DNA of 64,000 nt from Lingula anatina. Its lineage: Eukaryota; Animalia; Brachiopoda. Below are positions 17,840-64,000 of this stretch, piece after piece. The stretch covers positions 27,844,401-27,908,400 of the forward strand of contig CM120641.1 of the NCBI GenBank assembly GCA_051362555.1, written 5' to 3'. A program made the position numbers and the translations under genes. Numbering within the stretch: position 1 is the stretch's first letter; each line of letters opens with the position of its first letter. The notes beneath the pieces were generated by a model. It was not told the DNA's origin and ran no database searches. It saw nothing but the letters and a program-made list of their open reading frames with translations.

Positions 17840-18071
17840 TTACACTGGAGGTGGACCATCCAAGTAGGTCAACATGGGATCTAAGGAGCGCTGGAAATTG
17901 TTGCGCAGTTCGCACATGAAATCCTCCTCACTCATTGGCACGAGGCAAGCAATGCCGAGCAACAGGAGCAGCAATATCTGAAGAGGTAACGCTGTGCGAC
18001 ACACTCTCACCAGAAATGCAGCTGGACGGCGCCGTCTGACTGCTACTGCTCCTTCAGGGGGACTTTCGGTA
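17840..18071 (-). CDS. SYNE1: Nesprin terminal exon: transmembrane helix plus luminal KASH peptide
   Basis: RRRRPAAFLVRVCRTALPLQILLLLLLGIACLVPMSEEDFMCELRNNFQRSLDPMLTYLDGPPPV-stop: basic juxtamembrane patch, TM helix, conserved Cys and PPPX end. Confidence 0.97.
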
Positions 18072-23531: not shown

Positions 23532-23562
<31 letters not shown>

Positions 23563-24155
23563 AAAATTAACTTTATTTAAAGAGGATAAAACACATTTTA
23601 AAAAAATCTATCTTCCAGATGGATAAGGAACTCAGGGGCCAGATATCCAGTGCTTATGTGTGATCTTATTTGCAGTACATATCATTTCACAAATACTCCC
23701 ATAACAGTTGAACTAACCACAACTTATGAACCTATGTAAGAGTACCCATATGGCAATCTATCTCCAATCTTTTTATATTCAATGTAAAGCAATTGTGTAA
23801 AATGCAAGTTGAAATTTGAAAATAATTTGGATGTTATATAAATAAGTTAGAAAATTTCACAAAATATTGTCATAACAACAATAAAATTTACTACCTTGAG
23901 CCTGAACTTGTACAGAAGTGGCAGCAGACAATCCAGTGTCTTGCTTGAAGCTGTCACACATACTTCTGATTAGTTCTAAATTACTTCTAGATCCATACAA
24001 ATATTGGGCCTGAAGTAGAAAACAAGTATTCACACAATAATCAGAATTTAATTACTAAACATATAAATTGTTCTTTTTTTTATATACATACTCAGATATA
24101 TTGTATGTTGTATTACCCTGTGAGTGGAGTAAATTTGTTTGTGCCAATATTATGC

Positions 24156-24198
<43 letters not shown>

Positions 24199-26664: not shown

Positions 26665-26709
<45 letters not shown>

Positions 26710-41700: not shown

Positions 41701-44700
41701 CAATAATGAAGACATCTATTTGATCAATGTCAAAACACTGCATCAACTGAAATGGATTTTAATATCCCTCAAACTGAACCACTGTTCTTCTTGTGTTTGG
41801 AAAGTGTGTGGTTATTAATATTTTCTGAAACTGTAAGACAAATTAATGAATTTCAAATGCAATTCAATGGTACACAGCATGACTAAAAACCAATCACAAC
41901 CTGGCTTAATTATTTTTGTAGTAATGATGAGAAAGCCTAATTTCAATCACAAAATCAAATCACAATGTCAAACAAATCCTTTGAGATAAATCATATCAGT
42001 GAAGCCAAATAAATACTTTTTACACAACAAAAAGTCCATGCAAAATTATCAATTAACCATAGTTAGACTGGAGTTAACTGCCACATACAATAAATAAGTT
42101 AGGAACAGCACATGTAATGGTATTTCCAACAAGTAAAAAAAAAGAGCTGTCTCAAAATTTCAATTACATGGGGAAAAAAAAAACTATTTCATTTTTGTAA
42201 AAATTACTGGCAGAAAAACTGAACGTAATGCACCCCAAAACCAAACTAGGCCAGCTTTGGGGCAGCAAGATTAACATCACATAGTTCATGCACTTTATTC
42301 ACCTTTAACCTAGAGAATGCAGTCTAGAAAAGAAGACACACACAACAGCTGTTACATAAGGGTTATAATAGAAGCAACAATACATTCAATAAAATAACTC
42401 AATCTTGTTAGTTTTGAAATATATGGCAAACCTACAATTTTAAAGTACGAAACAGAATGTTTTCTACACATAAAACAAGAAAGAGGCAAACAAAAAATTC
42501 ATTATTTTTATAACCAATTAGTAATGTAGTTAGTATGCCATTAAAAAAAACTTGTACCAGTTAAAAGTGATCACATAACTACATAATTTTGAGTGCTGAA
42601 AAAGATAAATGAACAAACGAAAAAGTTGACAAAAGAAAAAGAACCAAATGTTTGTTAAAATGTGTCAGTTGCTAAGGGATAAATATTAAAGTTTCTGCTG
42701 AAAAAAAGAAAAAAGTTGAGTGAATACATACAGTGTGACATAAGATTTAAAATAAGAACAGTTTCAAACATAACGAGATAACTAAAATATAAAAGATAAA
42801 ATTGCAAGAAAATAAGATAAGAACTAATTTTAAAGAGAGATGGTGAAAGTAATGATAAATAATAGAACTTATTCTATGAAATTTAAAGATAGAGAAATGT
42901 ATATGCACCCTTTAGCTTACAGTTAAGATTCATGACATTTGCAAACTAACTTGAAACTCAAGCAGTCAACAAATATCACAACCTCTGGTATCATAAACTA
43001 TGTTGTGTTACACCTTGAAGGTTAACTCTTTACAACAAAGGTTTTATAAAATATGTCTTTTGGTCTCAAATGTTGCACAAAATAATAAAACACCAGAAAT
43101 TGCACATATGAAATCAATAACTGTAAAATGATTATTGGATTTGGCAAGAGATCAAATAAATTGTTTTTAAAGTTTGTATTCACAAACAGTTGAGACAAAA
43201 GAAACACGAAAAAAAATCTTTGTTTTAAAGAGTTAGCATACATTATGTTCAGCAATCTGTTTCTTGAGTCCCTCAACACTAGATGCCACCACTGGCGATG
43301 TGGTCAACTTCTGCTGCGCCTCTGTAATCAGCAGCGTCAGGCGGCTAATTTCTGCCTCGTATTTCTCTTGCTGAGCAATGGCTGATACCAGCTTCTCATA
43401 CTGATCCTTGGCTTCATTCTGCAGTCTGGCTATCTCTGTGCTGAGCTGTGCGCCACGTGTTGGCGAGAAGTCGCCAGCCATACAGCGGAGCTCCTCATGG
43501 CGAGCTAGAATAGTGTTTGCTTTGCTGCCATGTTTTTTAATGTCTGACAACAGTCGCTGTAAAAAACAAAGGTTATGAATGAAAAGAGATTATCTACCCT
43601 CGCTATCAAACAATTTTTTTTTCAAGTACAAAAAAACATGCCTGACAAAAAACACAATGAAATACAAAAATATCACCAAAAGGATAAGAATGAAAACTGA
43701 TTCTTTATCCAGGAACATTTCATCCTAATACAAAAATATCAATATTTAAATCTGCTCTCAGCAGTGTTCACATAACAAATCTGTAATTGACCAACCTCCT
43801 GTGCTGCAAGCTGCTCCTTCAAGGACAGAGTGGTGTCTTTCAAATGCATGCTGTGTTTGGTTTCTTCCATCCACTTCCCAATGTCCGCCATTTCCTTCTC
43901 ATATTGCTCCCATTCCCCAACAGTCTCTTCCAAGATGGCAGTCCTCTCACTGACCTGAGTCTTCACGGTGAACCACTGATCCTGGAGGTCCGACAGCTTG
44001 TTGGACACTGACCTGGCATTGCAAATGTCCGAAAGCTGCCTTACCGTAGAGCTCATGGCTTCCAATTTAGAGTCAATTTCTGGGGCATTTTCAAGTAAAG
44101 CCTGTCAAACAGAAGAAAAGTTAATCTTTCATGTGGATATAAAGTTTACGAATTGTATGAAAAATGATTTGGTTTATTACTCTAAGACTTGGTCTCAGCT
44201 ATATTGTGGCGACTGTTAAGAATATTAAGAAACATCATTTCATTACTTGTTTCTATGGTGTTAATTATACCATTATCTTTTACATGTACAGCCTCTTTGT
44301 ATAAGTATAGGCAAACTGATATTACATTTCAAATAAACTAAGTTTGATCCACCCTGCTTACCTACGTTAATACTTCAGATCATAAACACATTAAGTCATG
44401 TACTATTCTTTTCTGATAATTAAATCATGTACAAAATCAACGCATGTGTAATTTTGAACTGGACATACCCTATGCTCTTGTAGCTGCTGTTTCACACGCT
44501 CAAGACTAGCCCAAGCCAACTCGGTACAGACCACTGTCTCTGTCCTAGTCAGCTGACTACTAACAACAATATGGCTGGACTCAAAACTATCCCACAAATC
44601 TAAGGCTTCCTGTAAGTGTTCTGTTCTCTCGGCTGCTTTCTGTAGTAGCCTGGCCCAGCGATCATTGACAGAATTAACAGTTTTTGTTATGGAACTTCTT

Positions 44701-47672
44701 TCTTTGGGATCATCTGTGAGATTTATAACCTCACTGGCTTTGGATTCTAATTGTTCTGGTTGAGTCTTGAAAAGCTCTAACTCCACACAAAGTTGCTGAA
44801 ATTGCAATTATAGAAGCATGCATAGGTGAAGATGCTGTATCTTCCTACCACTTCAAAACAATACACACGTTGTAAAATTACTTGTATTTATCTAAAAAAT
44901 ATTCACTGATCTTTTCTTGCAATCCTACCACCTCTAAATATCTTGTTATATCCAAAATACTGCAATGTTCCCAAACAAGAAAAATTCTCTTCCAACAAAA
45001 TAACATCTATGATAAAACATTTTATGGGATAAAGAACTCATTTCATCACATTCAGACTAAGAAAAAAAACCTGACATTTCAAACACAATACCTTCATCTT
45101 TAAGTAAGGAATGTGGACAGATTATTGAGAGAATGAAAAAAAAAAGAAAACTGAATGCACCCCAGTGCTCACCTTCATGTCCTATATGAGGGAAAGTATC
45201 AATGTAGATACTGTATTTACAAAATATCACACAATCAGATTACATGCGTTTCCATTCAGTGACTTTCGTGTTTCTAGCTAACTGAATACAAGCAAGGCTA
45301 CAAACAAACCGTTCCAAAATAATAACCCAATACTAAAAGCCAGCCATAAAATTTAATGTTAAAACCTTCTGCAAATCACCGTACTTCAAATATATTTCAT
45401 AAGACATATATATTCCTCATATTAATATTTTCTATTGTCAATGGAAGTCCTACCTGATGCTTCTGATTTGTTTCTTCCAAGTCTCCATCTTTGTCTTGAA
45501 CTTTTTCCTCCGCATTGGTCAACCAGGTATTGACTGTCTTGACCATGTCATGGTATTCAATCTGAACAAAATACAAATAATAAAGTTTTAAAATAAGTAT
45601 AATTAGTAATCAAAATTATTTATTACTTCATCATATTATTTTATCAAAAGTAATGCCACATTTAATGTATTTCTGGCCTTAAAATAATGTTGTCATTACT
45701 ATACATCAGTGATCAAGACAGTGGATAATGGTTGAAAGCTCTGAAAAAACCTTTTTACAAATTTCAGTTTTCACCAACACTTATAATAATTTGAAATATG
45801 TTTATTGTAGTTTTGTGATAAGTGTCAAAGACTCATACATTTTCAGTTTCCAAGATCCAAGACATAAGTACCAAAAAGGACCACAACTACTCCTACTCAA
45901 AATTTTTACACATATTAAACCATACCAAATTCAGGGAAAAAACTTCAATCAAAAGTTTGTGCTGTTTTATACTGATGTTACCTTGCTTTGTTTGGCATGA
46001 TCCAACTGCTTCTCACTCTCCTTCAGCTGTTTCACTGTGGCTTCCTCAGCCTGTTTGTACACCTCTATCTCCGTGATCAGCTCTGGGGGCAGGTCACGTG
46101 ACAGGGCACGGTACTTCTCACGTTGTTTATGCACAAGAGTCTTGAGGTGCTCGGTTTTCAGGATAACTTCTCTTTGCAAGGCCTAAAGAAGAGAAAAAGA
46201 GTCCGGAATTGCCTTTGTTTCTTTCAATAAGACTGTTGCAACACTGATGTAGTTTTTAAATAAGCACAAAAATAAATAAATAAACAAATATTTGAAATAA
46301 AATCCTGCGTTTATGCCATAACAAGACACAATTAAACAGTCTGCAAAAATTTCATTATTCATTCCTGAATGCTTTATCTATATCCTACAATTCTTTTTCA
46401 ACCTGGAGGTGACCTACCTTATATTTTTCAGTTCTAGTATGTAAATCTCCCTGAGTGAGAGACTGAGATCTTGCTTGGGCCTCTTGCAACCACTGAAGAG
46501 TTAAATGAAGCTCCTGAAGGAATGTATCTCTAGTCTGGACTTCACCAAGGGCCGTCTGCTGGATGTCAGTAGCTTCTTTGTGAAGTCTAAAAGGAAAATC
46601 ATGCCATCACATTGATTTTTGCCATACATAAAAATTTTTAATTACCATTTTTTTCTTGTATACTCAGAATTTATCTGAAACTTTGGAAAGGAATAGGTCC
46701 GCTTTGAATCAAAATTTAATTTAGGAATCAAAATTTAATCCAGGTTCTATGCCATTATGAGATAAAAGTACTTTTTTTCAGAAAAAAACTCATCCTTTGG
46801 CTGTACACCTAACAATGAAATAACTTTTCACAACTGTTACAACATACTTGTCATATCTGTCCTGTGCAGCCACCATCTTCCTCTGCACTGCAATTCTGGC
46901 ATCACTGCTAGGCAGTTTACTCAGTATTGCCTGGGCTGCCTTCTGCATTTTGCCTATCTCCGAGTGCTGCTTTTCTAGCTCAGTTTTAATGGTCTGAAGA
47001 AAAAGATAAAGATGTATATCTTGATAACATATGGGCCTTACAGGGATGAGGCTGCCATTTAGTGAAAAAGTCAGCAAATATGGTGTGGGGTCCAGGGAGC
47101 TGCCTAGGCCATTGATATTTTTGGCTCCCAAAAAGTTGGAAATCTGCTGATAGTTGGAATAATCTCATCCCTAGCTTTATCAAAATATTGACATAACATT
47201 TTTATATTATATATTTTGAGTACTTTCTCTCAATCAGAAGAGAAAACAGGTACTGACAACATGTGCTGATACATGTTTGGGATAAGGGTATGGTGTAAGT
47301 TATTTCCATAATATCTGTTGTTATATTTTGCCATTTGGAATAAAAACAGACTGAATAAGGGATATGTTTTTACCAATTATCCACTCTTACCCACCCTGAA
47401 TTCCGTGTTGCTGGAAACTCCCCTTTTTTCAGCTAATAAGACAGGTGAGTTTACAGAAACCACTTGACATGCAGGGTGCTCTTACCTGGCAGTCAGACAT
47501 CTGGACCTGGAGCTGAGCTGTGGTGAGCTTAATGGCATCTTCCTTGGGCATCCTCTCCTCAATGGTGATTAGGAAGTGTTCAAATCTCTCATAGATTTGA
47601 TAGAAAAGGTGCCACTCTGTTACATACTCCTGTAAATTATGAATGAAAATGGTTAGAAAATATTTGGTATAA

Positions 47673-47708
<36 letters not shown>

Positions 47709-50700
47709 GTTAAACCCGTTTCTTACTGTAGATATTCAGTTGAATGTGAGATGGTAAAGAGTCTGCCTTATTTAAGCATCCCAAAGCTAAAAAAACTGTT
47801 TTTATTATATCAATATAGTTCAACAATGACAACAAATTACCCTGAGTACAATCTGTCTCTCATCTGCCTGACTGCTGACGGTTCTCCACCTTTCATTAAT
47901 ACCAGCTATCATCCTGGTAATGACCGTCTGGCTGTTCTGGTTTCCAGAGCGGGTCAACTCTCTGGCCTTCTGGTTCATCTGGTCCACTACTGCAGCACGC
48001 TTCTGGACAGCCTCAGTGAAATTCTGAACATAACAAAGTCAACATGCAAATAAACATGCCCATAATGAACACTGCCCCCTGCTGAATAAATAATGTTTCT
48101 CAAACAGCTTATTTTGGGAAGGAAGTGAGTATTGGTACTTTCAATGATCTAAAATTGGTTACAACCTTGATGATAGTATACATAAAGTAAACAAGTTCTA
48201 TTCATGACTGATACTTTTAAGTCCAATGGCTTAAATCCGAAGTTTGCGGAGTTTTTATATTCAAGAGTTTCTTATCATCAAGATTACATACCTCAATCTG
48301 GACCAACTGTTTAGCAGCTTGTTCAGAAGTGGCAGCAGCAGTGGTGTCAACATTTTCCCATTTCAGTTCCAATTCTTTCACTGTTTGGCTAGCATCTTCG
48401 AGTTGACCCTGAAGCAAAAAAAATGAATAAATAAATTAATAACAATAATAAACCAGCAATGTAAACAAAAATCCCTATTAATCCAAAAGTATGCCAAGCA
48501 TCAGTGATTAAAATATTTGACTTAAAATATTTCACTTCCTTTGAAATTACACTCATTAAAAGCAGAATTTTTGCCCCTGTTGTAACATTCATTGTTTTTA
48601 TTGTTAAAAAATTGAGAAATGTGAAGATGTTGGACAATATTATAAATTTATGTTATAGCCATGGAGACAGTATATTCAGAAAGTACCTGGAACTCATTCC
48701 AGTTTTTGAGCTCATCTTCTAACTGTTTCTGGCGTTTCGCGGCAGCTTTCAATACATCAGTGAGTTTCTGGTTGAGAGCTTCTACTGACTGCTGCAGAGT
48801 CTCTTTGTCATTGGGATCAAGTGTTGGGAAAAGACGCTCTGCTGTGTCTTGGATTCTGGACATTTCATCAGTTCGCGTATGTCCATCAGCAAAATATTCC
48901 TGGGTCACAAAAATATACACAATTTATACATTTGTATCAAACACAGCAGCACTTTTTGACTGAAATAATTCAATCATGAAAACTAATTCATGACAATATT
49001 TTTCAGGACAACAGAGATCACAAGGTAGTTTAATTTTTAGAAAAACAAACATCAAAGTAACGCAAATGTATTTAAAAAATGCGGAATTTCTTATTTCATA
49101 TGTACTCACCCTGTGTTGCTGTAGCTGGAAGGTGATGCTCTCATAATCTATCCCATCATACACAGGGACAAGCAGTTTCTCAGCATCCTGAAGCCAGATG
49201 GTCAGTGTCGTCTGCTTGTCATCAAATCTGAGGCGGTTATTCTTTGCAGCATTCAAGTAATCGGATTTACCATATAATTTGGACTGAAAATGATAAAAAA
49301 ACATTATAATTAATGTTTCAATATAAATTACTATTATTTCAACTCAAACATTGTGTAAAAGGAACTGTTGAGTGCAATAAGATTGGCAATACCAGGAAAT
49401 AATCATTATATGTAATATATGAAACATTTTGGTTATACATGTACCTGCAAAGCTGCTCTGTCATTTTCGTATTGCTCTAATCTGTCTGTCATCTCAATAG
49501 GCATAATTTCATCAAGCTCTTCAAAGTGAGCTCTCTGCTGAGCTATCTTGGTTTGTACTTCTCTTAAATGGCTGTTTATTTCATCAGCAACAACCTGAAA
49601 TGAGACATTACAAATTCATCAGATGAAAGTTCAATAATCACATCAAAATCACCTACTTCAATTCTAGTCTGACTCTTGAAGATACTGCGTTTCTTTATAA
49701 TTTAGTCTAAAACTGCAACTAAAAAGTTGAATTTCTACATACAAATTAATACAATAAAATGCTTAAAGGCCGATAGGGCTTACACATTAATAATGCACAC
49801 AAAGTTCATGAAATACCTGAAATTAGTGGACATGGCATAGGGAAACCTTGTTGAATACAGTGACCATTGTTTTAAAGATCCCTTATGTTGTTTCCTTTTA
49901 AGAAATGATCCCTTACTTGATTAAGAAATAGAAAATAATTACGAGTTACAAAACAAGTGCCATATATACCTGTTTATTTATCACATTTTTCATCATTACC
50001 TTGTGTTTCTTAATCTCAACCTCCACCTCATCAGCTTCCATACTGAGAGGTACCTGGACCACAATCTCTCTGTTCTTCGACTGCAACCACTCTAAAGTCT
50101 TATCCATTTCAGTCTCAAAGTCTCTCCTGTCTGACATGATTTTGTCCAATTCCTCCGTTTTCTTCTCAACTGCACGGAGCAATTTATCAAATTTCTGCTT
50201 GAGGCTTTGGTTTTGGTCTGCCACTGTCCTCTGGTCAGTGGTGTTGCACTCTATGGCTATCTGCTGCCCTTTGTCCATTATGGTGGCCAGCTGGAGTTCT
50301 TGCTCCTCTAGGATGGTGTGGACAGTCTAAAGTATGAAAAATATATAATTAGACAGTTTTGTATTATAATATTGAAATATACTCCCATATACTCTCAAAC
50401 AATACTATATAACTAAATGTTATATTGATTTAATTCCATTTTCTGAAATAGAATGTTTCTCAGCATAGAGAATAAGAGAGATCTGCACTATAATTACTTC
50501 ATCCTTTTTTATCCATATAGACTTTCCCACGCCAAGAAATATTCATGTTGAAACAATTGTGTAGACGAAATATAACTGCGCCAGTGTATTCATTTGTGAT
50601 ATTTTTTTCACTTACTTTGTATCTGTCAAATTTAGTTGGAGTTGGTATGCCAAGCTCACTGACTGCATCCAGTTGTTCTTGGCTCTCCTTCAAACAAGTT

Positions 50701-53700
50701 TCAAACTCTGTCTTCAGACTCTCATAATGCTGCCTGATAGTGACAGCATTTTCCAGCCTGGCGTAGGACTGTTCCACCTGCATCATGACCTGGTCAAAGG
50801 TCATCGTCAAGCGAGACAGTTCCGAGGCTTCCGTGGTTTGACCTTTGGCTGCCATACTGTCTTTTGATTGGTTGAGAGCAATGATGGTTGGCTGGTAATC
50901 ATTCAACTGGGTCTGCAGTTTCTGTAGAACAAAATACAAATATTTTATTGTTATCTAACAAGTGCTTGTCAACTTGCTTCTGCTAACAACTGTCTGAAAT
51001 ATAAAGAGGCAACAAAATACTATATCTTTCTTTTATTTTTCTCCTACATGCAATATGTCTAGAACCAAGGCTGAAGGCTCTTATTTTTAAACCACATGAT
51101 CCCTTTTTTTAAAGTCCTGGGTATACTGTATGCCTTTGAAATTCTCCAAAAAGCAAACAATCTAAGCAATGTCTACCTCACACTGGGCCAGCATCTTCTG
51201 GACCTCTACCGCTTTGATGGCCAGAGGTTTGTTCAGCCTGCGAACATCTTCCTGCAGTGAGTTCAGGATCCTGGCGCACTGGGAGATCTCATCGTCCAGC
51301 TGACCCCTGGCATATACAGTATCCTCCAGTGTCTTCACACGCTGTTTGGCCAAGTTGGATATCCTGTGGGAATAGATCAGTGTAGATGTGAACCCACTGT
51401 ATTCAAATACATTTCTATTTTTGTTGATGTCTTTACATTATGTTCAAGACATGTAGTTCCTTAGATGGAGAAATTTTAATGAACATTACTTCTCAAGTTT
51501 AATTTCCTGCAGCAGTGAATGAATATACATGTGAGAAAACCAAGTTCATATTATAAACTTATTGGAACTGAGTTGCTTTTTTTCCACTACAACTGCTTAC
51601 AGGTGCTGGTAATAACCTGCTGGTTATTACAAATAATTCCTTAGATGGAAAATTTTTAAAGAACATTACTACTCAAGTCTAAATTCTTGAAATGAATGAA
51701 TAAACATATGAGAAAATAAAGTTCACTTCATAAACTTATGGAACTGGGTTGTTATTTTTTTCTACTGCTATAATTGCCTACACCTGATGGTTCTTACCTC
51801 TGATGTCTATCCCTGAGTGTTTTAATCTGTGCTTGCAGAGTCAGCTTGTCTGCTTCGCTAAGTGACCCCAGGAAACTCTGACCTTGAGAGGTCACTTCAT
51901 CACTGAGAACTTCATATTCAGCTATCTTCTGCAACAAACTCTGTAAACGAACCAAAAAATGCATTTTATCTATCCAATAATTTCAAAATGTATTCTGATG
52001 TTCTCAATACTCTCCACTTAAAATTCTTGATCTACCAAATGCACAACAAACATGAATATGTCACTGCTTCTACATGATAAAAACCAGCAATGTTGGCTCT
52101 TTGTTTCACTTTCAATCACCCCAAAACATTAAATGTTAACATTAAAACATTAAAGAAAGTAACTTAATCTGGCAAATTTCAGACAGTGATTTCAGATGGG
52201 TGTTAGTTATTACATTAGAAATGTTGTGTCAAACCAAACCTGATATTTCTTGAGCTGTTCCTCTATCAGCTCTATTGTACAGTCCAGTCTGATCTCAGTA
52301 GTGATGGTAAGCTCTACTTCCTTTAGCCACAGTTCTAGTCTCTGAATATTGGACTCATATTTCCTCCTGACGGTTAGGCTCATCCTCAAAGTGGTGACAT
52401 GCTCAGACAGGCGTGTTTTCATTGTTTGATATCTTTCAAGTAGTTCTAGAAAAATATAATATTTCATCAAGAACATGTACAGAATACCACTATCTTTTTA
52501 AACTCCACCAATCATCAGATGATTTTAATTTGTAGAGAACATATACATATTATGTGTGTATATAATCTCTTTTAAAGAGAAATTGCTTATAAACTCATAA
52601 GATACATGTAATAATCTAAGAGTCCCTCTTTCTCATTGAAAATTTTAAGATTTTTTTTCAATATCAAAGTAGAACTGACCCTTCAACATTGTCTCCAGCT
52701 CAGAAGTCCCCTGCTCATCACAGTCAGTCTGGAGATTTCTTCCCTGGGTCACCACTTCCTCTAGTGTACCCTCCATGGAAGTAACCTCTGTCAGCAAAGT
52801 CTGTGGAAATAAATGAGATCATTTCAATATGTGTGACATTTTGAAATCTGAAATCGGAAGAGCCTCTGGGGGAAACCACGATAAAGATGGAGGAAACGGG
52901 CTAAATTGGTTATCTTGTCTTTATATTTAAAGATTGTTTATATTTATAAAATATCAGTATTATGCTAATAATACCGCAGGCAAAAATGTGAATATTATTT
53001 TGCTAACAGAAATTATTAAGCTGATTGCACACAGCAAGAAATGCCACGGAGTTGATCCACGTAGTCCAATGGTGTGTAAGGGAATGGGGACTTAGGCTCT
53101 ATTCCCATAGATTTTACATCGATCTATCCCCGCGGGGAGTCTCACTAGATTACTTTCAGATAATCCGACTTAAATGTCCGTCCCACCTACTACAAGCTGT
53201 AAGGAGGTAATTAACTTTCGTGTCCACTCAGCTGACAGCTATTTAGCGTGAACCCCCAGGGAGTTAGGTCGATCTAAAGTAGGTCGATCTAATCTATGGA
53301 AATGGGGTGTAAGTCATTTAAAGTATTTCTGGGGCAATTGTACCAACCTTGTATTTTTCATGCTGCCTCTCCACTTCCACAGCATATAGCCTTATGGTGT
53401 CAATTTTCCCAACAATCCTCTCCTTTTCCACAACCCAGATTGTTATTTTCTCATAGCTCTGGTAGAACTCCTCTCGGAGCTCCAGACTCCTAGAGAGAAG
53501 CTTCTGTTTTGTGAGGGCGTTGTTGTGAAGCTGGCTATGCTCTTTCTGAACAGACTGGATCTGTTTGTCAACTGATTCCCGCTCTGGGTGGCTGAGCTCA
53601 GAAAGCAGTGTCTCTCTTTGTCTGCTCACGGACTCCAGCACGGTGTGTTTGCTCTCTATTTCTTTGCAGATGATCTGATAAATGAATTTAAAACCATTGT

Positions 53701-54592
53701 AATTCTGAACCATGCATAAGTTTGCTTATGTGTTAAGTATAACTTGTGATGACACAAACAGTGTATACTTTTGTTAAATTTGTATTCCTCCAGTAGGAAA
53801 CTAACATGTACATTTTCAAAATATTTAGCCTGTTGAAAAAACAGGCATGTAATCTGATTTCAGATCTGAAATATATAAATATAAATATACTCAGCAATAA
53901 AATGTAAGAATCAGAGAGAGTCAGGCTTTGACAATTATTTCAGGAAAGGAAAGAATTTCAAATTATATTTTGACCTATCATATTTATATAGGAAAAACCG
54001 GCAGATTTTGACTTTTCATTTTATTAGAAAGCAATTATCTAACTTTCTTACATTATGCTCATGCAACTGCTGCTGTACATTTTGGACCCCATGTCCCAGA
54101 GATAGCCGACTCCCCACCATCTTCTTTCTCTCCTTCAGCCATGCCACGTAGCCGTCCAAGTCCTTCAACAACGTCTCTCTGCTGATGATCACCACCTCAC
54201 ACGCCTGCTTCTGATGTTTGGAACGCTGGCGTAAATCATTGTAGCGACCTTCTATATCTCTGTAAAATCAGTCATGTTTCTTATTTACTTGCATTCTCAA
54301 ATCAATGCAATGGCCTTCCTTGTCTTAAAAAGGCTTCCAGGTAATGACTTATTAATCACGCAACACATTTCAGCTTATCTTCAATATCTACACTTTAGTA
54401 CTGAGCATGAGAATTTAGTATTTTGATAACCAGAGGGTAATATTATGATTGTAGTAATAAAATTTATTAATGTACTGTTTTTTTGAACTAACAGTTAATC
54501 ATTAAACATCCTGATGATATTGATACAAATATATTTAATAATATTTAAGTATTCTCTGAGAACTGATATAAACTTTTACTACTACTCACTGT

Positions 54593-54666
<74 letters not shown>

Positions 54667-54960
54667 GTGTAACCACCAGGAGCCAAGAGTTGAAAGACCA
54701 CCCCTTATAACTATGTTTTTAAAATAACATATTACCCTGGTTCAAAAATTAAGCCTGAAAGTTTAAAGCCCATCTTTTTTTTTTTTTTTTTGAACTGGCC
54801 TTCAGACTCCCCACCAGTTGAGAGAAGATCATTTGGCTTACCTGACTTGATAGTCCACCAGGTTTCTGTCATGGGGACTGACCCGGGGGGCAATTCTTCC
54901 ACCAAGTTGTCTAAATGCTGCCACATCTTCCTCTTTACTGTCTAAGTCTGATACAAGTTT
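17840..54960 (-). CDS. SYNE1: Nesprin-1/SYNE1-like giant spectrin-repeat KASH protein, 3' part (60 exons, ~4696 aa in window; 5' part outside window or from alternative first exon)
   Basis: Exons (GT-AG, phases consistent, 14091 nt in total): 54842-54960, 54052-54259, 53348-53674, 52680-52800, 52240-52445, 51798-51940, 51177-51363, 50616-50921, 50000-50326, 49445-49594, 49110-49283, 48687-48899, 48292-48408, 47841-48023, 47486-47629, 46848-46993, 46418-46586, 45982-46182, 45454-45561, 44469-44795, 43796-44101, 43242-43556, 40654-41637, 40200-40382, 39675-39839, 39225-39407, 38847-39011, 38250-38594, 37802-37999, 37311-37598, 36802-37014, 36534-36638, 35683-35829, 35279-35449, 34514-34971, 34098-34257, 33663-33845, 32894-33370, 32371-32703, 31923-32056, 31413-31605, 30514-31146, 29910-30236, 28977-29612, 28543-28709, 28131-28293, 27694-27881, 27269-27419, 26765-27085, 26194-26394, 25571-25645, 24744-24909, 24267-24466, 23895-24009, 23314-23519, 22738-23067, 22284-22496, 21757-21879, 21109-21170, 17840-18071. 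Spectrin repeats throughout. Nesprin-specific blocks GVASVLNLCQVLLHDTDAC, IEETWRLWQKF and RCKTPTGPELE, plus the KASH terminus. Confidence 0.95.
24158..24200. repeat. (AAAT)n microsatellite
   Basis: Direct reading, intronic. Confidence 0.85.
26668..26709. repeat. (AAAT)n microsatellite
   Basis: Direct reading, intronic. Confidence 0.85.
34396..34452. repeat. (ATTAT)n microsatellite
   Basis: Direct reading, intronic. Confidence 0.85.
36268..36279 (-). CDS. Candidate 12-nt nesprin microexon (KEEP)
   Basis: Minus strand tgcatgatttccgtag|AAGGAAGAGCCA|gtaagg; phase 0-0, inside a phase-0 intron. Confidence 0.45.
42303..42323 (-). CDS. Candidate 21-nt nesprin microexon (TAFSRLK)
   Basis: Minus strand tcttcttttctag|ACTGCATTCTCTAGGTTAAAG|gtgaat; phase 0-0; TGCATG just downstream. 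Confidence 0.35.
47041..47173. mobile_element. Degenerate hAT-like MITE remnant
   Basis: cagggatgag ... ctcatcccta inverted termini, internal ggggtccaggg; TSD not convincing. Confidence 0.35.
51457..51797. repeat. Diverged tandem duplication (~180-bp period, 2 copies) in nesprin intron
   Basis: ttccttagatgga...gaacattact...ataaacttat...ggaactg recurs at 51457 and 51637. Confidence 0.8.
53091..53313. mobile_element. Degenerate MITE
   Basis: Imperfect inverted termini cttaggctctattcccatagatt..atcgatcta / taggtcgatctaatctatggaaatggggtgtaag; CpG-rich interior. Confidence 0.45.
54597..54662. repeat. (TA)n microsatellite, ~33 units
   Basis: Direct reading. Confidence 0.92.
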
Positions 54961-56066
54961 CTGAAATGGGAAAATTTAGCTACTGAGAAACTGCTGAAAA
55001 TGTTTCACTTTTCAGTGTATAAAGTCAAACATGATAAGAGGAATTGTTACTGTTCAGAACTTCATATTAATATGAGTGTCAGGAAAACCTCACAAGTGAG
55101 AGTGGGATCATGATCAATACAACTGCATTTAATTTTTTAATTAAACTAGAAAAAGACCTTTGGTTACCAATTCATCTGAGAAAAGTTGTGAAATACATAA
55201 GATCAAGGATGAAAAAAATGTAAAGATGAAACTTTTTTAAGGCCCATTAGTGAAAAGTTTTTAAAAAAACCAAAACACCACTGAACAATTTTTCCAATAT
55301 GTGATATTCTGCTATTTTAGAGCCTATACTTCATACAAATGTAAATATAAAACTTGTTTTAGTATTACTAATTTTACAAACTCAAAACTTATGCATTTAT
55401 ACACAAACCACATACTAGACTCTTGTGTATAACTACTGATATTGGACGACATTAGGTGTGCCAGATGCAATAAGACAGCAAAGCAATTGTTGCTAATTAT
55501 CTTCCAGAGTAAGCACATAGTGTCAACATTCATGGAATGCTGTGTCAGCCTTGAAATATGCTCCACAATTTCTATACATGCATAAACATACTTTTTCACT
55601 GACAGTGCTGAATAGATATAGAAAGTTCAAAATAATGTGTTTTAATTGATACTTAACACCGAACACTTACATTTTCTGATTTTCTGTCAGTGACATCAAA
55701 AGTGAACTTAATGTCCAGTGAATTTGCAATTCACCTGCAGTCAATGTCAATATACAAAGTTGACATTATTTAATAGGGGTTCACTCTTATACATAAGGTT
55801 CAGAAAATTATGCATCTATTCTTTATTTTTTAATAGTGAAACAGGGGAAATGCTTCCATTATGACAGACTGGTTTCAATCAACCAGTTAAAATACAACAT
55901 GCTCAGAGCATCAGAGATTGGTAATCCAAAGTTATTATTAATATTTACTAAAACTTAATCACTTCCATTATGCACTGGTTTAAGCATATCCCATTCAGAA
56001 CACACTATCAGTTTCCATTGGAACAATTCAGTATTGATCAGCCTCAACAAACAACTTTCATCTTAC

Positions 56067-56153
56067 CTTTCTCTTTCTCCTGAAGCTAAGAGTGGTGTAC
56101 GTTTTCTCATGTCGCGATCCCTGCTCATTTTTACACGACAGACAAGCACCCAT
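56067..56153 (-). CDS. Candidate alternative first coding exon of nesprin encoding an N-acylation signal (MGACLSCKNEQGSRHEKTYTTLSFRRKRK)
   Basis: ATG in atcATGG context at 56153; 29 codons; phase-0 donor AAG|gtaaga, compatible with the phase-0 acceptor at 54960. Confidence 0.6.
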
Positions 56154-57832
56154 GATGCCCTCATTTTTTACCTGAACCCTGAGTCCAAACACATACTAAA
56201 GCAGCTCTATTTCATTTGCAAATTTTTCTCTGCATAAACAAGTTTTTGCATCATATTGCTGTCTAATTTATACCATTGGTTCATGTATGGTTTTTCAAAA
56301 TTGTTCCTAAATAACAGTGATGGTTGTAACTGGACACTGGGCAGTACAATGATTTACATGACGCAGCATTGCTTAATATGTATGCCCTTAGTCCTGTTTG
56401 AGTTCAGGTGTCACATTATTCTCTCAATTTCCTATCCTCAGTTAACGCATGCCCTGAACTTGATTGTTATCCTAATGGATTTTCTAAGATTATTCCTGCC
56501 ATTTGCAATCATTTCCATCTCCATTTTTCATCTCGGAATCTTATTTTTCTGTAGAACACTTCACCAACTCTTGGCACTGCAAACTGCCACTAACTAATTG
56601 ATTGAATGGCACTGCAATGGCCTGTCTACTAGCTCATTGAAAATTTAAGCAAACAGTTCAGTTATACTATAATCACTTTAGCCTGTGTTAATTATTGACC
56701 ACTGTAAACAAATGTACACTCAATATCAACGAATCAAAAGTGGGATTTTCTTGTAAGGTGTAGATTAATGATAACACCATGTTAAAATTCTGAGCCCCAT
56801 TACTTAGAGATATGCAGGACATGAGAATGCTCCATTTTGAGAAAGTTATCAAATCTGCCTTCTTTTCAGAAGCATTTATTGCCGTGTAACAGCCTTTGAT
56901 GAAAGGCTGAGTCAATATTGTAGGTCTAATTGATTACCAATATATGGACGCATTCTTAAGGTTTTCATTACCCAATACTCGGTATGTAAACACTGAACAC
57001 AGCAACATAATATCATATCCTTTTTTCAATAATTGTATTTATTTTAGGTGGCAGGTTTATGGCCTCACATCATGTATCAATCACATAAATTGGTTACATT
57101 TTGCAAATCGATAAAGTTTTTTTTTTTTTATACATGAATGTACTTTAGTTCAAAATCAAATACTTTTTGTATTATTTGTGAGGGTAAACCTTGGCTTACA
57201 TCTATACAAGACAAAAAGCAAACAAATTCTTTATCAAAAAAAATTTATAGTAATACTGCTTGAAAATATTGACAAAAATGGAAACCATTGTAAAATCTTA
57301 CATAATTCCATTTTAAATTCTCAAAGAACAGAAAGCACAAAACCATTAATTTCTTCTCCTTTAAACGACTAGTATGATAGGATACATTTAATTTTCTGGC
57401 CTAAGCAGTTTCAAATATATAAATCACATCATATTGGGTTGATAATATTTCTAACATCTACTTTAAATGAAAAATACCAAATCAAAATAATCAGCAAAAT
57501 TTTCAGAAGGCACTTCAATTACTTAATATCGGTGGACAAATGTTATGCGAAAAGTTCAAATTGTTTACCCTTTTAATATAAAAAAGCTTCACATATATGC
57601 TTTTTCAAGTATAAATGACTGTTACCCTGAAAATTTGAAAAATTTATCAAATCAAAATACAATTAAAAATATTATGCATGATCTGGAAAGTGTAACAAAA
57701 TACTTTCATGAATTACAGTGGGATATAAATTTCCTGAACAAAGTGACTCCCTTTCTTAGGTGGTATATGAGAAAAATATTTCATCCAACACGCAACTTCA
57801 ATTCTGTCCTATATGTTTAATTGAATGAACTT

Positions 57833-60445
57833 CTATGTTTCTATCAGATCCTTTAAAAGGGATCTTTTCATGGTCTCAGTAGTCTCTTTCATATCTCTAG
57901 CCATTTTTGTAGCTTTGGCAATAGCAACATCCATATCCTGCTTGACCTTTTTATCCTTTTGTTTAGCACTCTTATGTTCTTTCTTATCAGACAGTCCTGC
58001 TGACCCGTATTCCCTGGTGAATTCCCTGGGTGTGGCTCTTCTTGGAAATGGAGGAGACCTGGCTAGGTTCACAGGCACTGGGATTTGAGTGCGTTGGGAT
58101 GTGACAGGAGTGGTTGTGACAGGCACAGCTAACACAATGGGTTGAGGTGGTGGTGCTTGTGGTGGTTGTGGTGTGTTGACAAGCTGTACAGGGGGCTCGG
58201 TGACAAATATCATGTTTGGAGAGTTAGGTGGTGCCATAGGCATGGAAGACTGGGGCCTGGGAATGACTTGCCTATCAGGAGGCAACCAGGGACTTCTTGG
58301 TACTCTAAGAGCGTGTTGGCCTGTTGGATAGTTGGGTGCTTGTTCTCTTCTCTGCTGCCTTGGTGAAGGTTCTTCATATCTGAACGAGTCTCTCTGTTGG
58401 GATCCAGTTCTATTTCTTGTCCTGTCTGGCAACAGCGGATACCTGCCTTCCAGTCTATCACTTAAACTCCTGGAGTGCCTATCATTATGTTGTGCTGAAG
58501 AATCCAGTGTACTCACGGGTTTTCTGTGCCACAGTATGGGTTCCCTGGCACTATGGCTCCTATGGTGCCTTGGTTGATCAGGTGTATTTGAAGGTGCATC
58601 CACCTCCATGGGCATGTCTCTGTTATCCATATCATCCTTTATCTTCCTAACTTCATCAATCAAGTTTCTAATTGCACTATTCCTGGGGTTTTCACGGCCT
58701 TTCCTTTTTGGTTTGCTTTTTACAGGAGTCTGAGTTTGACTGCTAGTATGTAATGGGGTCTGATTAGTGGCATCAGCTACCAAATTCTCAGTTTGACTTG
58801 AAATACTCCATGGTCTAACAGAGACTAGAGTATCTGCATCACTGTCAAATACATACTTAGGTTTAGTTCCATCCAAAGTCTTCAATTTTGGATTATCTTT
58901 TACATTTTTATCAACACGATTCAATTTTGTTGGAACCAAATCGAGATCTTCATCATTCCTCATTGACTTAGTCTTGGGCAGAGATTCCCTAGAACTAGAT
59001 TTTTTCTTTAATTTCTTTGAATCTTTGTCTTTCTTTTGCTTCAAATGCTTCCAATGATGTCTGCTTGGAGTCTGTGTAGCTGCATGGTCTGGTGTCTGAG
59101 TGGAATGATTTGATATTGTTTGACCACCAAAATCTCTCATTTGTGGAATGTTTTCTTGGGAAACTATTGAAGATGCAGACGGAAAAACATCCATTTGCAT
59201 GGGACTTTCCCTTCCTCTAACAACAGGCAATCCAAAAGGTCTTCTCTCCTGTCTCCTGGTCTGTGGTGAAGGCTGTGTCAGAGGTTTCTCAGAAGTTTGT
59301 GTTCCAGCATGTCCTGTAGTTTGCATAGTATTGTTTCTTAATCCCTGACCTGAAGAATCCAAGGTACCTGGTACCTTCAAATTTCTTCCAGTACCAAGTG
59401 CTTGGAACATATTCCCTAATGTTCCACTTGGCACTTGGTTTCTGAAGTTTCTGTAATGTGTTTGTGTGCCAACATGTCCTGGGGTCTGTGTGGACCCACT
59501 TCTCACAGTCTGCATTGAAAAGTCATATGTTTGCCTTGGACTAGAAGTGCTTTCAGGTTCTATGACCATGGTCTGTGTACCAGCATGGCCAGGGGTTTGT
59601 GTCACACTATCTCTAATAGTCTGCATTGAGAAATCCCTTGTAATGACAGGAACCTGGGTGTCCAAGGTAGTCCAAGAAGCAGTTACACTTATGGTGTCCT
59701 CTTCACCTTCTGAGCTTTGAGAGTTGCGATCAAAATTTCTAAATTGATTTCCAGTTCCACTGGACCTATCCATCATAGTTGACTGTAGAGGACCTAATGA
59801 GTTGTCTGTTTGAGTTCCGTAGTGAAGACCTGGCAATCTAAGACTAGAATCATTATGTACCGGTGAAGTACCCCGACCAACCTGAAGAGGTCTTAACATT
59901 GAGTTTCTTAAAGTATCTTGACTAATTTGTTCAATTTCCTGTGGTGCATCTTGATTATCCACAGCAGGACTACTACTGCCATCTAGAATAGTAGAACTAT
60001 TCTGTGATGCAGGCATGGTGCCACTGGTAGAACCCTGGAATGTATACACAGTCTCCCCCAGTCCAGATTCATCACTCTCATACTCCAGCTCATCTGGCCA
60101 CAGTTTCTTCCTCCCCCTGGGGGTACTGCGACCAGACCCTGTCCTGGGGGAATTGGCATCACTTGGATGAAGCCATGGAGTGGTCCTACCAGATCTTGAT
60201 CTGGGGGTATTGGTACCACTTTGGGTGTCCCTTGGGGTGGTCTGGTCTGTTTTAGGGCTATTGGTGTCAGTGTCATTACACTTTGCTCGAGTCCTATGGG
60301 ACCGAGACTGGGATGTTTGTCTACCACTCTGTGGCAGTCTTGGTGTGACGCCACCTGATGGTGACCTTGCCATCCCTCTTGACCTTGATGAGTGACCTTC
60401 ACCTAGGGTTTGCGTCCCACACTCATGACTATCCATGGCACCAGG
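57833..60445 (-). CDS. ~870-codon intrinsically disordered ORF with multiple TQT motifs; probable alternative terminal exon of nesprin (or nested gene)
   Basis: An uninterrupted 2.6-kb ORF in AT-rich intron. In-frame phase-0 acceptor tgtttgtatgtctag|CCTGGTGCCATGG at 60445, strong Kozak ATG at 60436, stop at 57833. Minus-strand AATAAA at 57038-57043 and 56875-56880. Confidence 0.85.
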   Translation of the reverse strand, partial: PGAMDSHECGTQTLGEGHSSRSRGMARSPSGGVTPRLPQSGRQTSQSRSHRTRAKCNDTDTNSPKTDQTTPRDTQSGTNTPRSRSGRTTPWLHPSDANSPRTGSGRSTPRGRKKLWPDELEYESDESGLGETVYTFQGSTSGTMPASQNSSTILDGSSSPAVDNQDAPQEIEQISQDTLRNSMLRPLQVGRGTSPVHNDSSLRLPGLHYGTQTDNSLGPLQSTMMDRSSGTGNQFRNFDRNSQSSEGEEDTISVTASWTTLDTQVPVITRDFSMQTIRDSVTQTPGHAGTQTMVIEPESTSSPRQTYDFSMQTVRSGSTQTPGHVGTQTHYRNFRNQVPSGTLGNMFQALGTGRNLKVPGTLDSSGQGLRNNTMQTTGHAGTQTSEKPLTQPSPQTRRQERRPFGLPVVRGRESPMQMDVFPSASSIVSQENIPQMRDFGGQTISNHSTQTPDHAATQTPSRHHWKHLKQKKDKDSKKLKKKSSSRESLPKTKSMRNDEDLDLVPTKLNRVDKNVKDNPKLKTLDGTKPKYVFDSDADTLVSVRPWSISSQTENLVADATNQTPLHTSSQTQTPVKSKPKRKGRENPRNSAIRNLIDEVRKIKDDMDNRDMPMEVDAPSNTPDQPRHHRSHSAREPILWHRKPVSTLDSSAQHNDRHSRSLSDRLEGRYPLLPDRTRNRTGSQQRDSFRYEEPSPRQQRREQAPNYPTGQHALRVPRSPWLPPDRQVIPRPQSSMPMAPPNSPNMIFVTEPPVQLVNTPQPPQAPPPQPIVLAVPVTTTPVTSQRTQIPVPVNLARSPPFPRRATPREFTREYGSAGLSDKKEHKSAKQKDKKVKQDMDVAIAKATKMARDMKETTETMKRSLLKDLIET

Positions 60446-61115
60446 CTAGACATACAAACAACCCATGTGTTAACACAACTTGAAATGGCATTGTTGCACA
60501 CAGCAAGCTCCTGCAGTTGCCCTCTGAATTTTGCCCTTTATAGGTATTTTACAGTCCAGGTAGGTCGACTAGATCATACACCTCATACAAATATGGGGGA
60601 TGTTCCATGGGTAAAACAGCTTTGGGTGGTAGTTTTAAGGAATAGTTTAAAAGAGAAGGCAGCAGCCATGGCAAAGAGTATTAATGGTGAGTCAATGTAT
60701 CATTCTCTGATATAAGATGTCAATCAGACCATATTTCACTTCATTCCATAAAAATCATTAAATTAGCCAAACGGTTGCTTATTTCTCTATTTTGATAAGC
60801 TGTCTAATATATTCATCACACTTACAAAATTATAAAATTAAATCTAATATCTACCAAAATGTAACAGACAGTTTTTAGCCTACCATCTCAATATTCACAA
60901 TCATATTTCAAGATTTGATTATATGCAACATGCCAATATAAAGCATCAGCTTGCAGCTTGAACTGAAGCTGGATAATATGATTAATATAAAATCACTGGC
61001 AAATTATGCAACAAGTGGTTACATATTAAAGAAATCTATTTTAACATTTAATTAGAAGTTAGCACATAATGGTTATTCATATGCCACCAAAAAATCATAT
61101 TAGAATTTTTTTGTC

Positions 61116-61701
61116 AATGGTCTATTTTTGTAACAACAGTTTTATATTTTTTTGCCATGCAATTATTTATTTTGGTGTAACTTGCAGTTACCATTTTTAT
61201 CAAAAAAATGTATAATTATTATTTTATAGTTCAATGTTCATGATCCAGTCAAGATTGGAAACATACATATAATACAGAAGACAACTTGAAATAATGTGGA
61301 AAAGTGACAATATTCACTTGTTGTGTATAAAATATATATAGGTATGATATTTGCAAATTGTGCTGAAAGTTCCATTGATCTGATGAAGAAAAATAAGACA
61401 GATTTGAAAATATTTTACTAAATGGTCTACTTTTGTAACATCAGTTTTCTTGCCATGCAATTATTGATTTTAGTGTATCTTGCAATTCCTATTTTCAACA
61501 CAAAATTGTATATTTATCATAATTCAGTTAAATGTTCATGATTTATTCCAATCAAGATTGGAGAGATAAAGGATACAGAAGACGATGTGAAATAATGTGG
61601 AAAAGTGATGGAATATGAAGCTTGTGGTGTGTAAATGTGTGTAAAATATACAGGTGTGACATTTGCAATCTGTGATGAAAGTTCCATTGACTTCATGAAG
61701 A
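61116..61701. repeat. Diverged tandem duplication (~305-bp period, 2 copies)
   Basis: aatggtcta..ttgccatgcaattatt..tcaagattgga..gaaataatgtggaaaagtga..gaaagttccattga recurs at 61116 and 61421. Confidence 0.85.
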
Positions 61702-62771
61702 TGTGATTAGTGTTAGAAGTCAAAAGCAAGCCACTCAACAAGGAAAAATTCAACCAGGAAAACAAGCACAGCAAAAATGGGCAAAAGCTGTTAGGATAAG
61801 GGACATGCAATACAAAACCACTAAATTGCTGCTTTACCCACTAACACCACTGTTACAAAACAGAAATCAATTTCTACTCATGCAATTTTTCAGAAACAAT
61901 TTCATTTTTTTTTTTGGCTATTTCATCTGCAGGAGCTACATGCTAACACAACAATGAGAACCTGAGAATGCACTACTTTGTTAATATAAAGAGTTTAAAT
62001 ATTTTTGATCTATAATTTAATAAGATTGACTAAATTAAACCCAATACTAGAAATGCATACAAGTAAAATCATACCAATGTAAAATCTATTTTTGTAAGTT
62101 TTTAAAAAGTTTCTTTAAGGAATATGACAATAAAGAAATCTACTTATTTATCAAGATTTTTTCATTAACCCCGCCAGCAGCTTGTTACATCCAAATAATA
62201 AATTGCAACAAAATAAACCATAAATTAAAATTAAGCAAACAAAGTAAACATACGTTGAAATCAAAACATATTCGCAAATAAAACTCAAATTATATATCAC
62301 TGTTAGTTTTGATCATTCACTGTTAGAGGATTAAAGCTTTAATATTTCAGCAATATTGCCACATCCATGAAAGGAGTCCTAGCTAGGTTACTTGTCTTTA
62401 CTTGTCTGCATAAAATAACTGAGTGAAAAAAGTTTTATAAATGAAAATCCTTTCATTCTTTTTAGCAACTTACTGATGTAATTCAAAGAAAAAAATTTAA
62501 GAGTACTTGAAGATTTTTCAATAAAATACCAAACATATACCAAAGCCATATTGAGTATCCTTTCATGGATCTGTAGTATTAAACCACGTTGACAAAAAAT
62601 GATATTAATAAATAAAATCAAAATAAACAAGCCTTCAAAAACACATGATCAACTCACCTCTACAACTTCTATAAGGAGCTTCCATCAGGAATAAAGCTTA
62701 AAGCACACATCAATCCACAACAAGGACCAGGTGAAACAGGACAGTTCACATAAGCCAGCTGATGAGCTATA

Positions 62772-62935
62772 GGCCGCATTCAGAGGAGCGGACTAACTAG
62801 TCCGCGGGTCAAATATGGTGATCCACTAAAAAGCTTGCTGTCTAATCCACTAATAGATTCCCCCTGGGAAAGTATTCAAGTGGGTCGGCCATATTTGACC
62901 TTCGGACTTGTTAGTCCACTGTTCTGAATGCGGCC
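62772..62935. mobile_element. MITE with ~55-bp imperfect TIRs (Tourist/PIF-like termini)
   Basis: ggccgcattcaga..ggactaac.agtccg..ggtcaaatatgg..ccact is mirrored by agtgg..ccatatttgacc..cggact.gttagtcc..tctgaatgcggcc; flanks ata/atg. Confidence 0.8.
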
Positions 62936-64000
62936 ATGTAGGAACTCTATTGAAGGTTAGTGAGCAGCAGGGTTACCATAGGTTAGGTGTTAGGTTTGGT
63001 TACAAGCACATGTAGTTATTATCAGTTTGCATTTATTTTATGTATCACAAGGGTTATTCAATTTTGCACAATGTACGAGGATTTTGCATTCATGGTGCCC
63101 ATGTACACATGAATCAAATGTTTTATCTTTCATTTTGAATATCACTGACAGAAAACATCAATCACAGAAGGATTGACATTTTGAGAATATTCACTGCCAA
63201 TAACAGGCTTGGCAATATGGGTAATTATTCATTTGCAGACCCCATTTTTCCACATTTAACCTTCCAATACTGCACTCATAAAACGGAGAACAAGATTAAA
63301 ATATCCGAAATTATACCTCACAAATAAACAACCCCTACTTCAATACCAGAATGAGGAAATACTGCATTATTTGCCAGATGTTCTCAATATTTAGAGGCAT
63401 TTATGTGTAGCAAATATATAAATCCATCAAAACCCCACCAGGCTTTCAAGAAAGTGAGTGTCTCATCCAGTATTTTATTGCAATATTCTACTCTAGCAAA
63501 ACTAACAACTGTGAATGTGTTTGCTGATCTTACAAAGTAACTGCAAGGACATGTATTATATTCTTCTTTCTTAGCTAGGTCCCACTATGTTGTAATAATA
63601 TACCAGCTGTAGCTATTTCTATGTAGTACAGAAATTCTAAAAAAATTCAAAACAGATATTTGTCCTCTTTCTAGCCTTAACCTACAATAACCTATGGAAC
63701 TAAAAGTATTGGCACAAGCTAATAGTTACACTATACAAACAGCCATTTTACAGCTTGTAAACAGAATAAAAGATGGGTACAGCTAAATAGTCATGTCACT
63801 GGCATTTCCTAAACATACATTTAGTAAACTACATTTAATACTGCAGATAAAACTTTTCCAGTGCCCAACTAAGTTTACTGAAACAGCCTTATTTGGTATA
63901 TTTTAATACATCTTTAAACTTGATTGCTAGGAAGATTCCCTCTTACAAATGAAAGACAGTGATTTTCTAAAATAAATTTTCCAATTATAATTGATTAACA

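Follow-up and report, generated by a model that had tools for sequence, protein, structure and literature searches.

In human SYNE1, a terminator and a new start lie together at one intron: the 3′ end E82 adjoins the 5′ start E83 and the 3′ end E14 adjoins the 5′ start I14/15, which yields KASH-less and CH-less products (p603CH and p931KASH) (PMC3388047). In its available portion, that paper describes the I14/15 product p931KASH as hypothetical, with a potential N-myristoylation site, and terms the large variants hypothetical as well. The single Drosophila Msp300 locus gives separate CH-only and KASH-only isoform sets by means of internal promoters and terminators, some of these isoforms having large non-spectrin repeat regions (PMC11230431, available text), and in dystonin alternative first exons provide a spectrin-rod giant with a potential myristoylation/palmitoylation leader (bioRxiv 10.1101/122010, available text). 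Here we describe a long intron of a nesprin-1-type gene in 64,000 nucleotides (nt) of the brachiopod Lingula anatina (GenBank assembly GCA_051362555.1, contig CM120641.1, positions 27,844,401 to 27,908,400 of the forward strand; hereafter the window, with positions counted from its first letter). An original prediction, made from the letters of the window, held that this intron could cut the giant protein into two differently anchored halves. We put at roughly 45% the reading in which the intron is spliced out whole for the long rod and also serves as a stop-and-restart point for both halves. The gene and its intron are placed as follows.

17840..54960, minus strand: C-terminal half of a nesprin-1-type gene, from a splice-aware model with 59 exons and 4,711 residues, spectrin rod to KASH
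17843..18071, minus strand: last exon, with the KASH domain (PF10541)
54842..54960, minus strand: rod exon at the split point, its phase-0 acceptor joined by an exon beyond the window
54961..64000, minus strand: long intron of the full-length transcript, from RNA joins, its 5′ end beyond the window

From 54960 to the stop at 17840, the model is a stop-free chain of short exons, and its end matches the KASH family typical of nesprin-1/SYNE1-type proteins (PF10541, E 2.5e-27; 95 bits, cut-off 23), so that the acceptor at 54960 does open a spectrin-exon chain ending in KASH, as had been proposed. The rod is colinear with nesprin-1: in stretches of up to 1,300 residues it is 38-46% identical to the mollusc and vertebrate proteins, and the modelled protein aligns with the Ostrea and Nucella nesprins in three colinear blocks of 27-38% identity; single-exon Pfam spectrin matches were weak and under the cut-off. 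The protein homologue search covered proteins of up to 5,000 residues, so giant full-length nesprins, and likewise KASH-less halves in relatives, lay outside its range. In a tree of 12 rows the gene lay next to four mollusc nesprins without falling among them, and separate from seven vertebrate rows. The tree is a quick version with a midpoint root and supports no more than an invertebrate-type nesprin-1 outside the sampled molluscs. Within the rod, a modelled exon of 984 nt (41637-40654, minus strand) is mostly a low-complexity non-spectrin insert, and the mollusc proteins are poorly alignable there too.

Transcript evidence came from eight raw RNA runs of the same species (X1, X2, X3, X4, X5, X7, X8 and X9), about 6-30% of each, at a low depth of 0.2-4x (0-4x on the rod exon next to the small candidate first exon described below); joins into and out of exons were sought among the loose ends listed, and reads from a repeat at 62.8 kb crowded a second mapping, made at 90% likeness. 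Nine reads (three in X4 and six in X7, two of four runs) joined an exon from beyond the window to 54960 in phase 0, and all nine listed joins into 54960 originate from this outside exon. The acceptor used is a strong one (score 8.1 with a matrix from the gene's own introns). A transcript omitting both of the cassettes in the intron thus exists, and the full-length giant nesprin foreseen by the original prediction is very probably made by this join. The outside exon shows 10 open codons, in frame, in a sequence absent from the window, and in 60446-64000 neither read depth nor a rod-like frame marks an upstream exon. We infer that it is the preceding rod exon, because of these 10 open codons and because bird nesprin-1 is continuous across this point; bird and fish nesprin-1 both continue across the residue matching 54960, about 4,550 residues before the bird C-terminus. 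The proposal of a single long phase-0 intron therefore stands for its parts, which lie at the positions given, and for the phase-0 join to 54960 in RNA, whereas its upstream end is not within the window. Of the junctions singled out for checking, that from the upstream exon to 54960 was found, but none from 56067 to 54960 or into 60445 was listed. Two repeats lie in the upstream part of the intron: an element resembling a miniature inverted-repeat transposable element at 62772-62935, with 47-nt inverted arms that are 87% complementary and many diverged copies among the RNA reads, and a degenerate tandem duplication of about 300 bp at 61097-61701, whose pieces are 80-92% alike.

In transcription order, the first cassette within the intron consists of a long exon, a repeat cluster inside it and two candidate polyadenylation signals.

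57833..60445, minus strand: transcribed exon of 870 codons, S/T/P/R-rich and likely disordered, with its own stop and its own ATG at 60436
59070..59635, minus strand: four repeats of about 65 nt with clusters of xQT (predicted LC8 sites), from a repeat family and a motif table
57038..57043, minus strand: AATAAA, candidate proximal poly(A) signal, from sequence
56875..56880, minus strand: AATAAA, candidate distal poly(A) signal, from sequence

The 870-codon frame opens at 60445, right after a TAG, and closes with its own stop at 57833, compared with a longest frame of 213 codons in 1000 shuffles, and both it and the two AATAAA signals (57043-57038 and 56880-56875) agree with what had been predicted. 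By binned depths, the exon collected about 1,150 read bases in X1, 2,390 in X2, 1,200 in X3 and 600 in X8; there were no bases on it in X4, X5, X7 and X9, and X7 had one read at the stop or just behind. The roughly 5,350 read bases on the exon compare with about 470 on 4.3 kb of non-repeat intron, densities of 1.94 versus 0.11 (approximately 18x). These reads fall on the same mate side as the rod-exon reads of X4 and X5, and, provided that the libraries were made with the same chemistry, nesprin-strand transcription of the long exon is therefore likely. Usage looks reciprocal, with the long exon only in X1-X3, the 54960 exon only in X4, X5 and X7, both in X8 and neither in X9, which fits a tissue switch.

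Whether this exon is spliced to nesprin we regard as an even call. Phase 0 at 60445 fits the donor of the upstream exon, and in X1-X3 about four intron reads of this mate side fall before the long exon in transcription order, with none in 55102-56636; the pattern slightly favours transcription from further upstream. Several observations weigh against the fusion. No junction into 60445 was among the joins listed for the eight runs, in which few reads reach that far. The acceptor had been predicted as in-frame and phase 0, and its position and phase hold, but it is weak: it outscores just 2 of the 58 acceptors in the model, and of the intron's 562 AG sites 50 do at least as well. The exon has an ATG of its own at codon 4, in the context GCCATGG, and one X1 pair near 56.7-56.95 kb seems, by base count, to pass the distal AATAAA. 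With a target of just 119 nt, chance could account for X1-X3 having no reads on the 54960 exon. Among the listed differences between reads and genome, 4 of 13 in the long exon are synonymous (neutral expectation 3.7) versus 3 of 3 in the rod exon, so that this small test looked neutral and gave no evidence of amino-acid constraint; none of the listed differences in the long exon is a stop or an indel. Directly upstream (60466-60446, minus strand) lies a six-codon in-frame Met-Gly-Cys frame ending at the TAG that forms the 60445 acceptor, possibly by chance, possibly a second acylation-type start truncated by the stop.

The weak acceptor, the ATG, a TATAAAG upstream and the lack of a listed junction make a nested gene a serious rival, and we hold it somewhat less probable than fusion that the long exon belongs to one. 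In its full form, slightly less probable again, the long exon would be the coding exon of a same-strand nested gene for a disordered multi-TQT protein of 867 residues starting at ATG 60436, and nesprin would make only the full-length form and an acylated C-terminal half. The TATAAAG is the sole one in 9 kb and sits at 60542, about 100 nt upstream, and expression of the long exon does not track that of the 54960 exon. Transcription starting near 60512, however, would leave a 76-nt leader with three upstream ATGs, the frame opens exactly at an in-phase AG, and the expressing samples have a few same-strand intron reads upstream of the TATA. Introns with a terminator followed by a promoter are, moreover, known from SYNE1 (PMC3388047, available portion).

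Whichever start it uses, the long exon would encode a tail of unusual composition. TQT occurs 10 times, against a shuffle mean of 0.66 and a maximum of 6 in 2000 shuffles, and 0 times in the 4,711-residue rod, which upholds the multivalent TQT tail of the original prediction; order-promoting residues make up 17% of the tail versus 27% of the rod, and the tail is rich in S, T, P and R. The repeats each encode two or three xQT motifs at 8-residue spacing, and counts of repeat-borne motifs are thus non-independent. The LC8 recognition motif is 8 residues long and follows flank rules (PMC6607443; further LC8 literature, PMC12057147; both in their available parts). In each of the 16 listed xQT motifs position -4 is polar and the interior is free of proline; position +2 is P, D or E in 7, and in 4 position -3 holds a small residue, which is disfavoured. 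With several TQT-type anchors on a disordered chain, polar -4 positions and no proline before the anchor, the tail has the sequence character of a multivalent LC8 client and is predicted to bind LC8. It resembles the multivalent clients KANK1 and ASCIZ in being a long disordered chain with many closely spaced QT motifs, and the disordered linker of KANK1 becomes a rod through many LC8 dimers (PMC12803091, available text); it differs from both in lacking homology to them and in that its LC8 binding is predicted only.

Searches for relatives of the tail were blank among near-length proteins, 1.84 billion representatives, metagenome contigs and the fetched nesprins, as they were in the ESM Atlas for the whole tail and for residues 815-870, and these results also count against the stop-and-restart reading. 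Given the low complexity of the sequence, they do not show novelty; the rod exon nearest the junction, scanned against metagenomes, likewise gave no match. In Pfam, the whole tail matched 0 families at E<=1, and three tail pieces searched at E<=10 gave no AKNA. The tail had been called AKNA-like, and it does resemble AKNA in being a disordered P/S/T-rich chain with a helical-looking last stretch, but neither Pfam nor the homology searches supported the likeness. What separates the tail from AKNA is that it has no Pfam AKNA match and no detected homologue. AKNA itself is treated in PMC8535656 and 10.64898/2026.08.17.745143 (available parts), and the main text of 10.1101/2023.09.15.557927, as far as it was available, contains neither AKNA nor nesprin.

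Further down the intron lies the second cassette, a small exon.

56067..56153, minus strand: likely alternative first coding exon of 29 residues, with MGxxxS, Cys at 4 and 7, a basic end (MG...RRKRK) and a phase-0 donor

The exon begins with ATG and ends in a phase-0 gtaaga donor at 56067 that fits 54960, just as had been proposed. By a matrix derived from the 58 introns of the gene itself, this donor ranks first of 504 GT sites in 9 kb and above 52 of the gene's 58 real donors, and the exon is the only candidate with an MG start and a phase-0 donor in the 6.4 kb of non-coding intron. Among 1000 Markov-simulated introns, 11 contained an MG start whose donor scored no lower than the median, and none combined MG start, donor, Ser/Thr/Cys at position 6, an early Cys and a basic end, criteria that were picked after the exon was seen. 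The consensus for N-myristoylation is a Met-Gly start with Ser or Thr at position 6, and a Cys or basic patch provides a second anchor. Met-Gly, Ser/Thr at 6 and a Cys/basic patch are all present in the window exon, and equally in an oyster leader. With the small exon the model reaches 4,740 residues, so that the two lengths, 4,711 and 4,740, lie on either side of the predicted ~4,725.

For the oyster Ostrea edulis, all three RefSeq isoforms (XP_048737333-5) open with a 21-residue leader consisting of MGxxxS, one Cys and a Lys/Arg run, which enters the rod at the residue matching 54960; the Lingula 54960 exon aligns to the Ostrea protein from residue 22 on, the following exons are colinear, and isoforms X1 and X2 end in KASH. 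The likeness is therefore one of an MGxxxS/Cys/polybasic leader joined to the same rod residue as the small exon of Lingula, and the difference is that the leader is unalignable and belongs to a database model rather than a described isoform. We rate a C-terminal half with an acylated start as probable, chiefly on the strength of this oyster leader, alike in type and placed at the corresponding residue. Other observations tell against this half. Reads on 56067-56153 were absent from all eight low-depth runs, and no 56067-to-54960 junction was among the joins listed for them. The leader was present in one of four mollusc species compared: the Nucella model, too, takes the counterpart of the 54960 exon as its first, preceded by three residues and lacking a leader of this type, and the Haliotis and Lymnaea models begin further down the rod. 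The oyster leader shares features but no alignable sequence with the 29-residue exon, and it is a RefSeq gene-model prediction. The Nucella and Ostrea annotations both start with the counterpart of the 54960 exon and may therefore have divided one gene into two.

By our estimate it is improbable that the small exon is chance or dead sequence and that nothing beyond full-length nesprin and the long exon, whether fused or separate, is in use. The blank runs, the common origin of all nine listed joins into 54960 in the outside exon and the mismatch in sequence with the oyster leader speak for this view, whereas the best donor in 9 kb, the simulations (0 of 1000) and the oyster leader of the same type at the same residue speak against, and at such depth few reads are to be expected on a first exon 14 kb away from the poly(A) end. 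The lipid-anchored half of the original prediction thus gains from donor strength, the chance test and the oyster leader, but has no read on its first exon. Very unlikely, finally, is that the long exon represents an insertion that is recent, drifts fast or has no function and is transcribed without selection as protein, a view favoured by its neutral-looking differences, its internal repeats and the lack of a homologue in 1.84 billion representatives, but contradicted by 870 open codons where shuffles reach 213, by reads free of stops and indels among the listed differences, by ordered QT motifs with LC8-type flanks and by exon-like read boundaries.

Returning to the described systems, the 3′ ends of SYNE1 add few residues by intron retention (8 for E90) and not an 870-codon exon, according to the available portion of PMC3388047, and its myristoyl start lies near the N-terminus, in contrast to a Lingula split far down the rod. 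From size (603 of 1008 kDa), the Lingula split is likely not the E82/E83 intron. In Msp300, units of about 100 residues form the repeats of the CH-less PE and PG isoforms, and the available text of PMC11230431 mentions no acylated leader or LC8 motifs; dystonin differs as a spectraplakin with its leader at the actin-binding end and without KASH (10.1101/122010, available text). The claim that no described nesprin is like this one consequently holds in part: the principle of stop then restart is already described in SYNE1 and Msp300, including the predicted myristoyl start at E14/I14/15 in the former (PMC3388047), but a mid-rod acylated restart common to oyster, together with a multi-TQT tail, appears new. 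In the open-licence literature, subscription journals being outside the scope, no invertebrate mid-rod acylated nesprin or LC8-tailed nesprin was found, and nothing relevant on nesprin and AKNA in invertebrates, on AKNA and DYNLL1, or on nesprin in molluscs or annelids. Many predicted nesprin isoforms may be minor, because nesprin-1-beta (383 kD) was found at low or restricted levels (PMC3981789, available portion).

If the intron does serve as a stop-and-restart point, an internal promoter upstream of 56153 would drive the small MG first exon, and splicing of that exon to 54960 would produce a half of 4,740 residues ending in KASH, its start predicted to anchor in a membrane by fatty acyl groups and basic residues. 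N-myristoylation would take place at Gly2, with palmitoylation of Cys4 and Cys7 and the basic patch as second signals. Because it would be without N-terminal actin-binding domains, this half would tie the outer nuclear membrane (through KASH-SUN) to another membrane rather than to actin. For the other half, tissue-specific splicing into 60445 and polyadenylation near 57.0 kb would give a KASH-less product, on whose closely spaced QT motifs several LC8 dimers could assemble, joining the tails in pairs and making them stiff as in KANK1. The broadest version, which we offer tentatively and consider unlikely as a whole, is an old invertebrate switch point that would trade anchors by tissue among an actin-to-nucleus giant, a lipid-anchored strut of 4,740 residues with its junction conserved in oyster, and an actin-binding half that lacks KASH and ends in an 870-residue tail stiffened by LC8. 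Should the acylated half be real, it would make a nesprin a direct bridge of about 4,700 residues, free of actin-binding domains, from the nuclear envelope to another membrane. The oyster match would then mark a conserved invertebrate isoform that is now an unremarked N-terminus in a database, and would hint at a reason for the start of some mollusc gene models at the counterpart of the 54960 exon.

Elsewhere in the window, exons at 4149-1755 (minus strand) carry two GYG/GFG pore motifs and look like a two-pore potassium channel. Long acidic low-complexity frames at 9220-9834 and 11539-12789 (plus strand) form a convergent gene downstream of the nesprin 3′ end.

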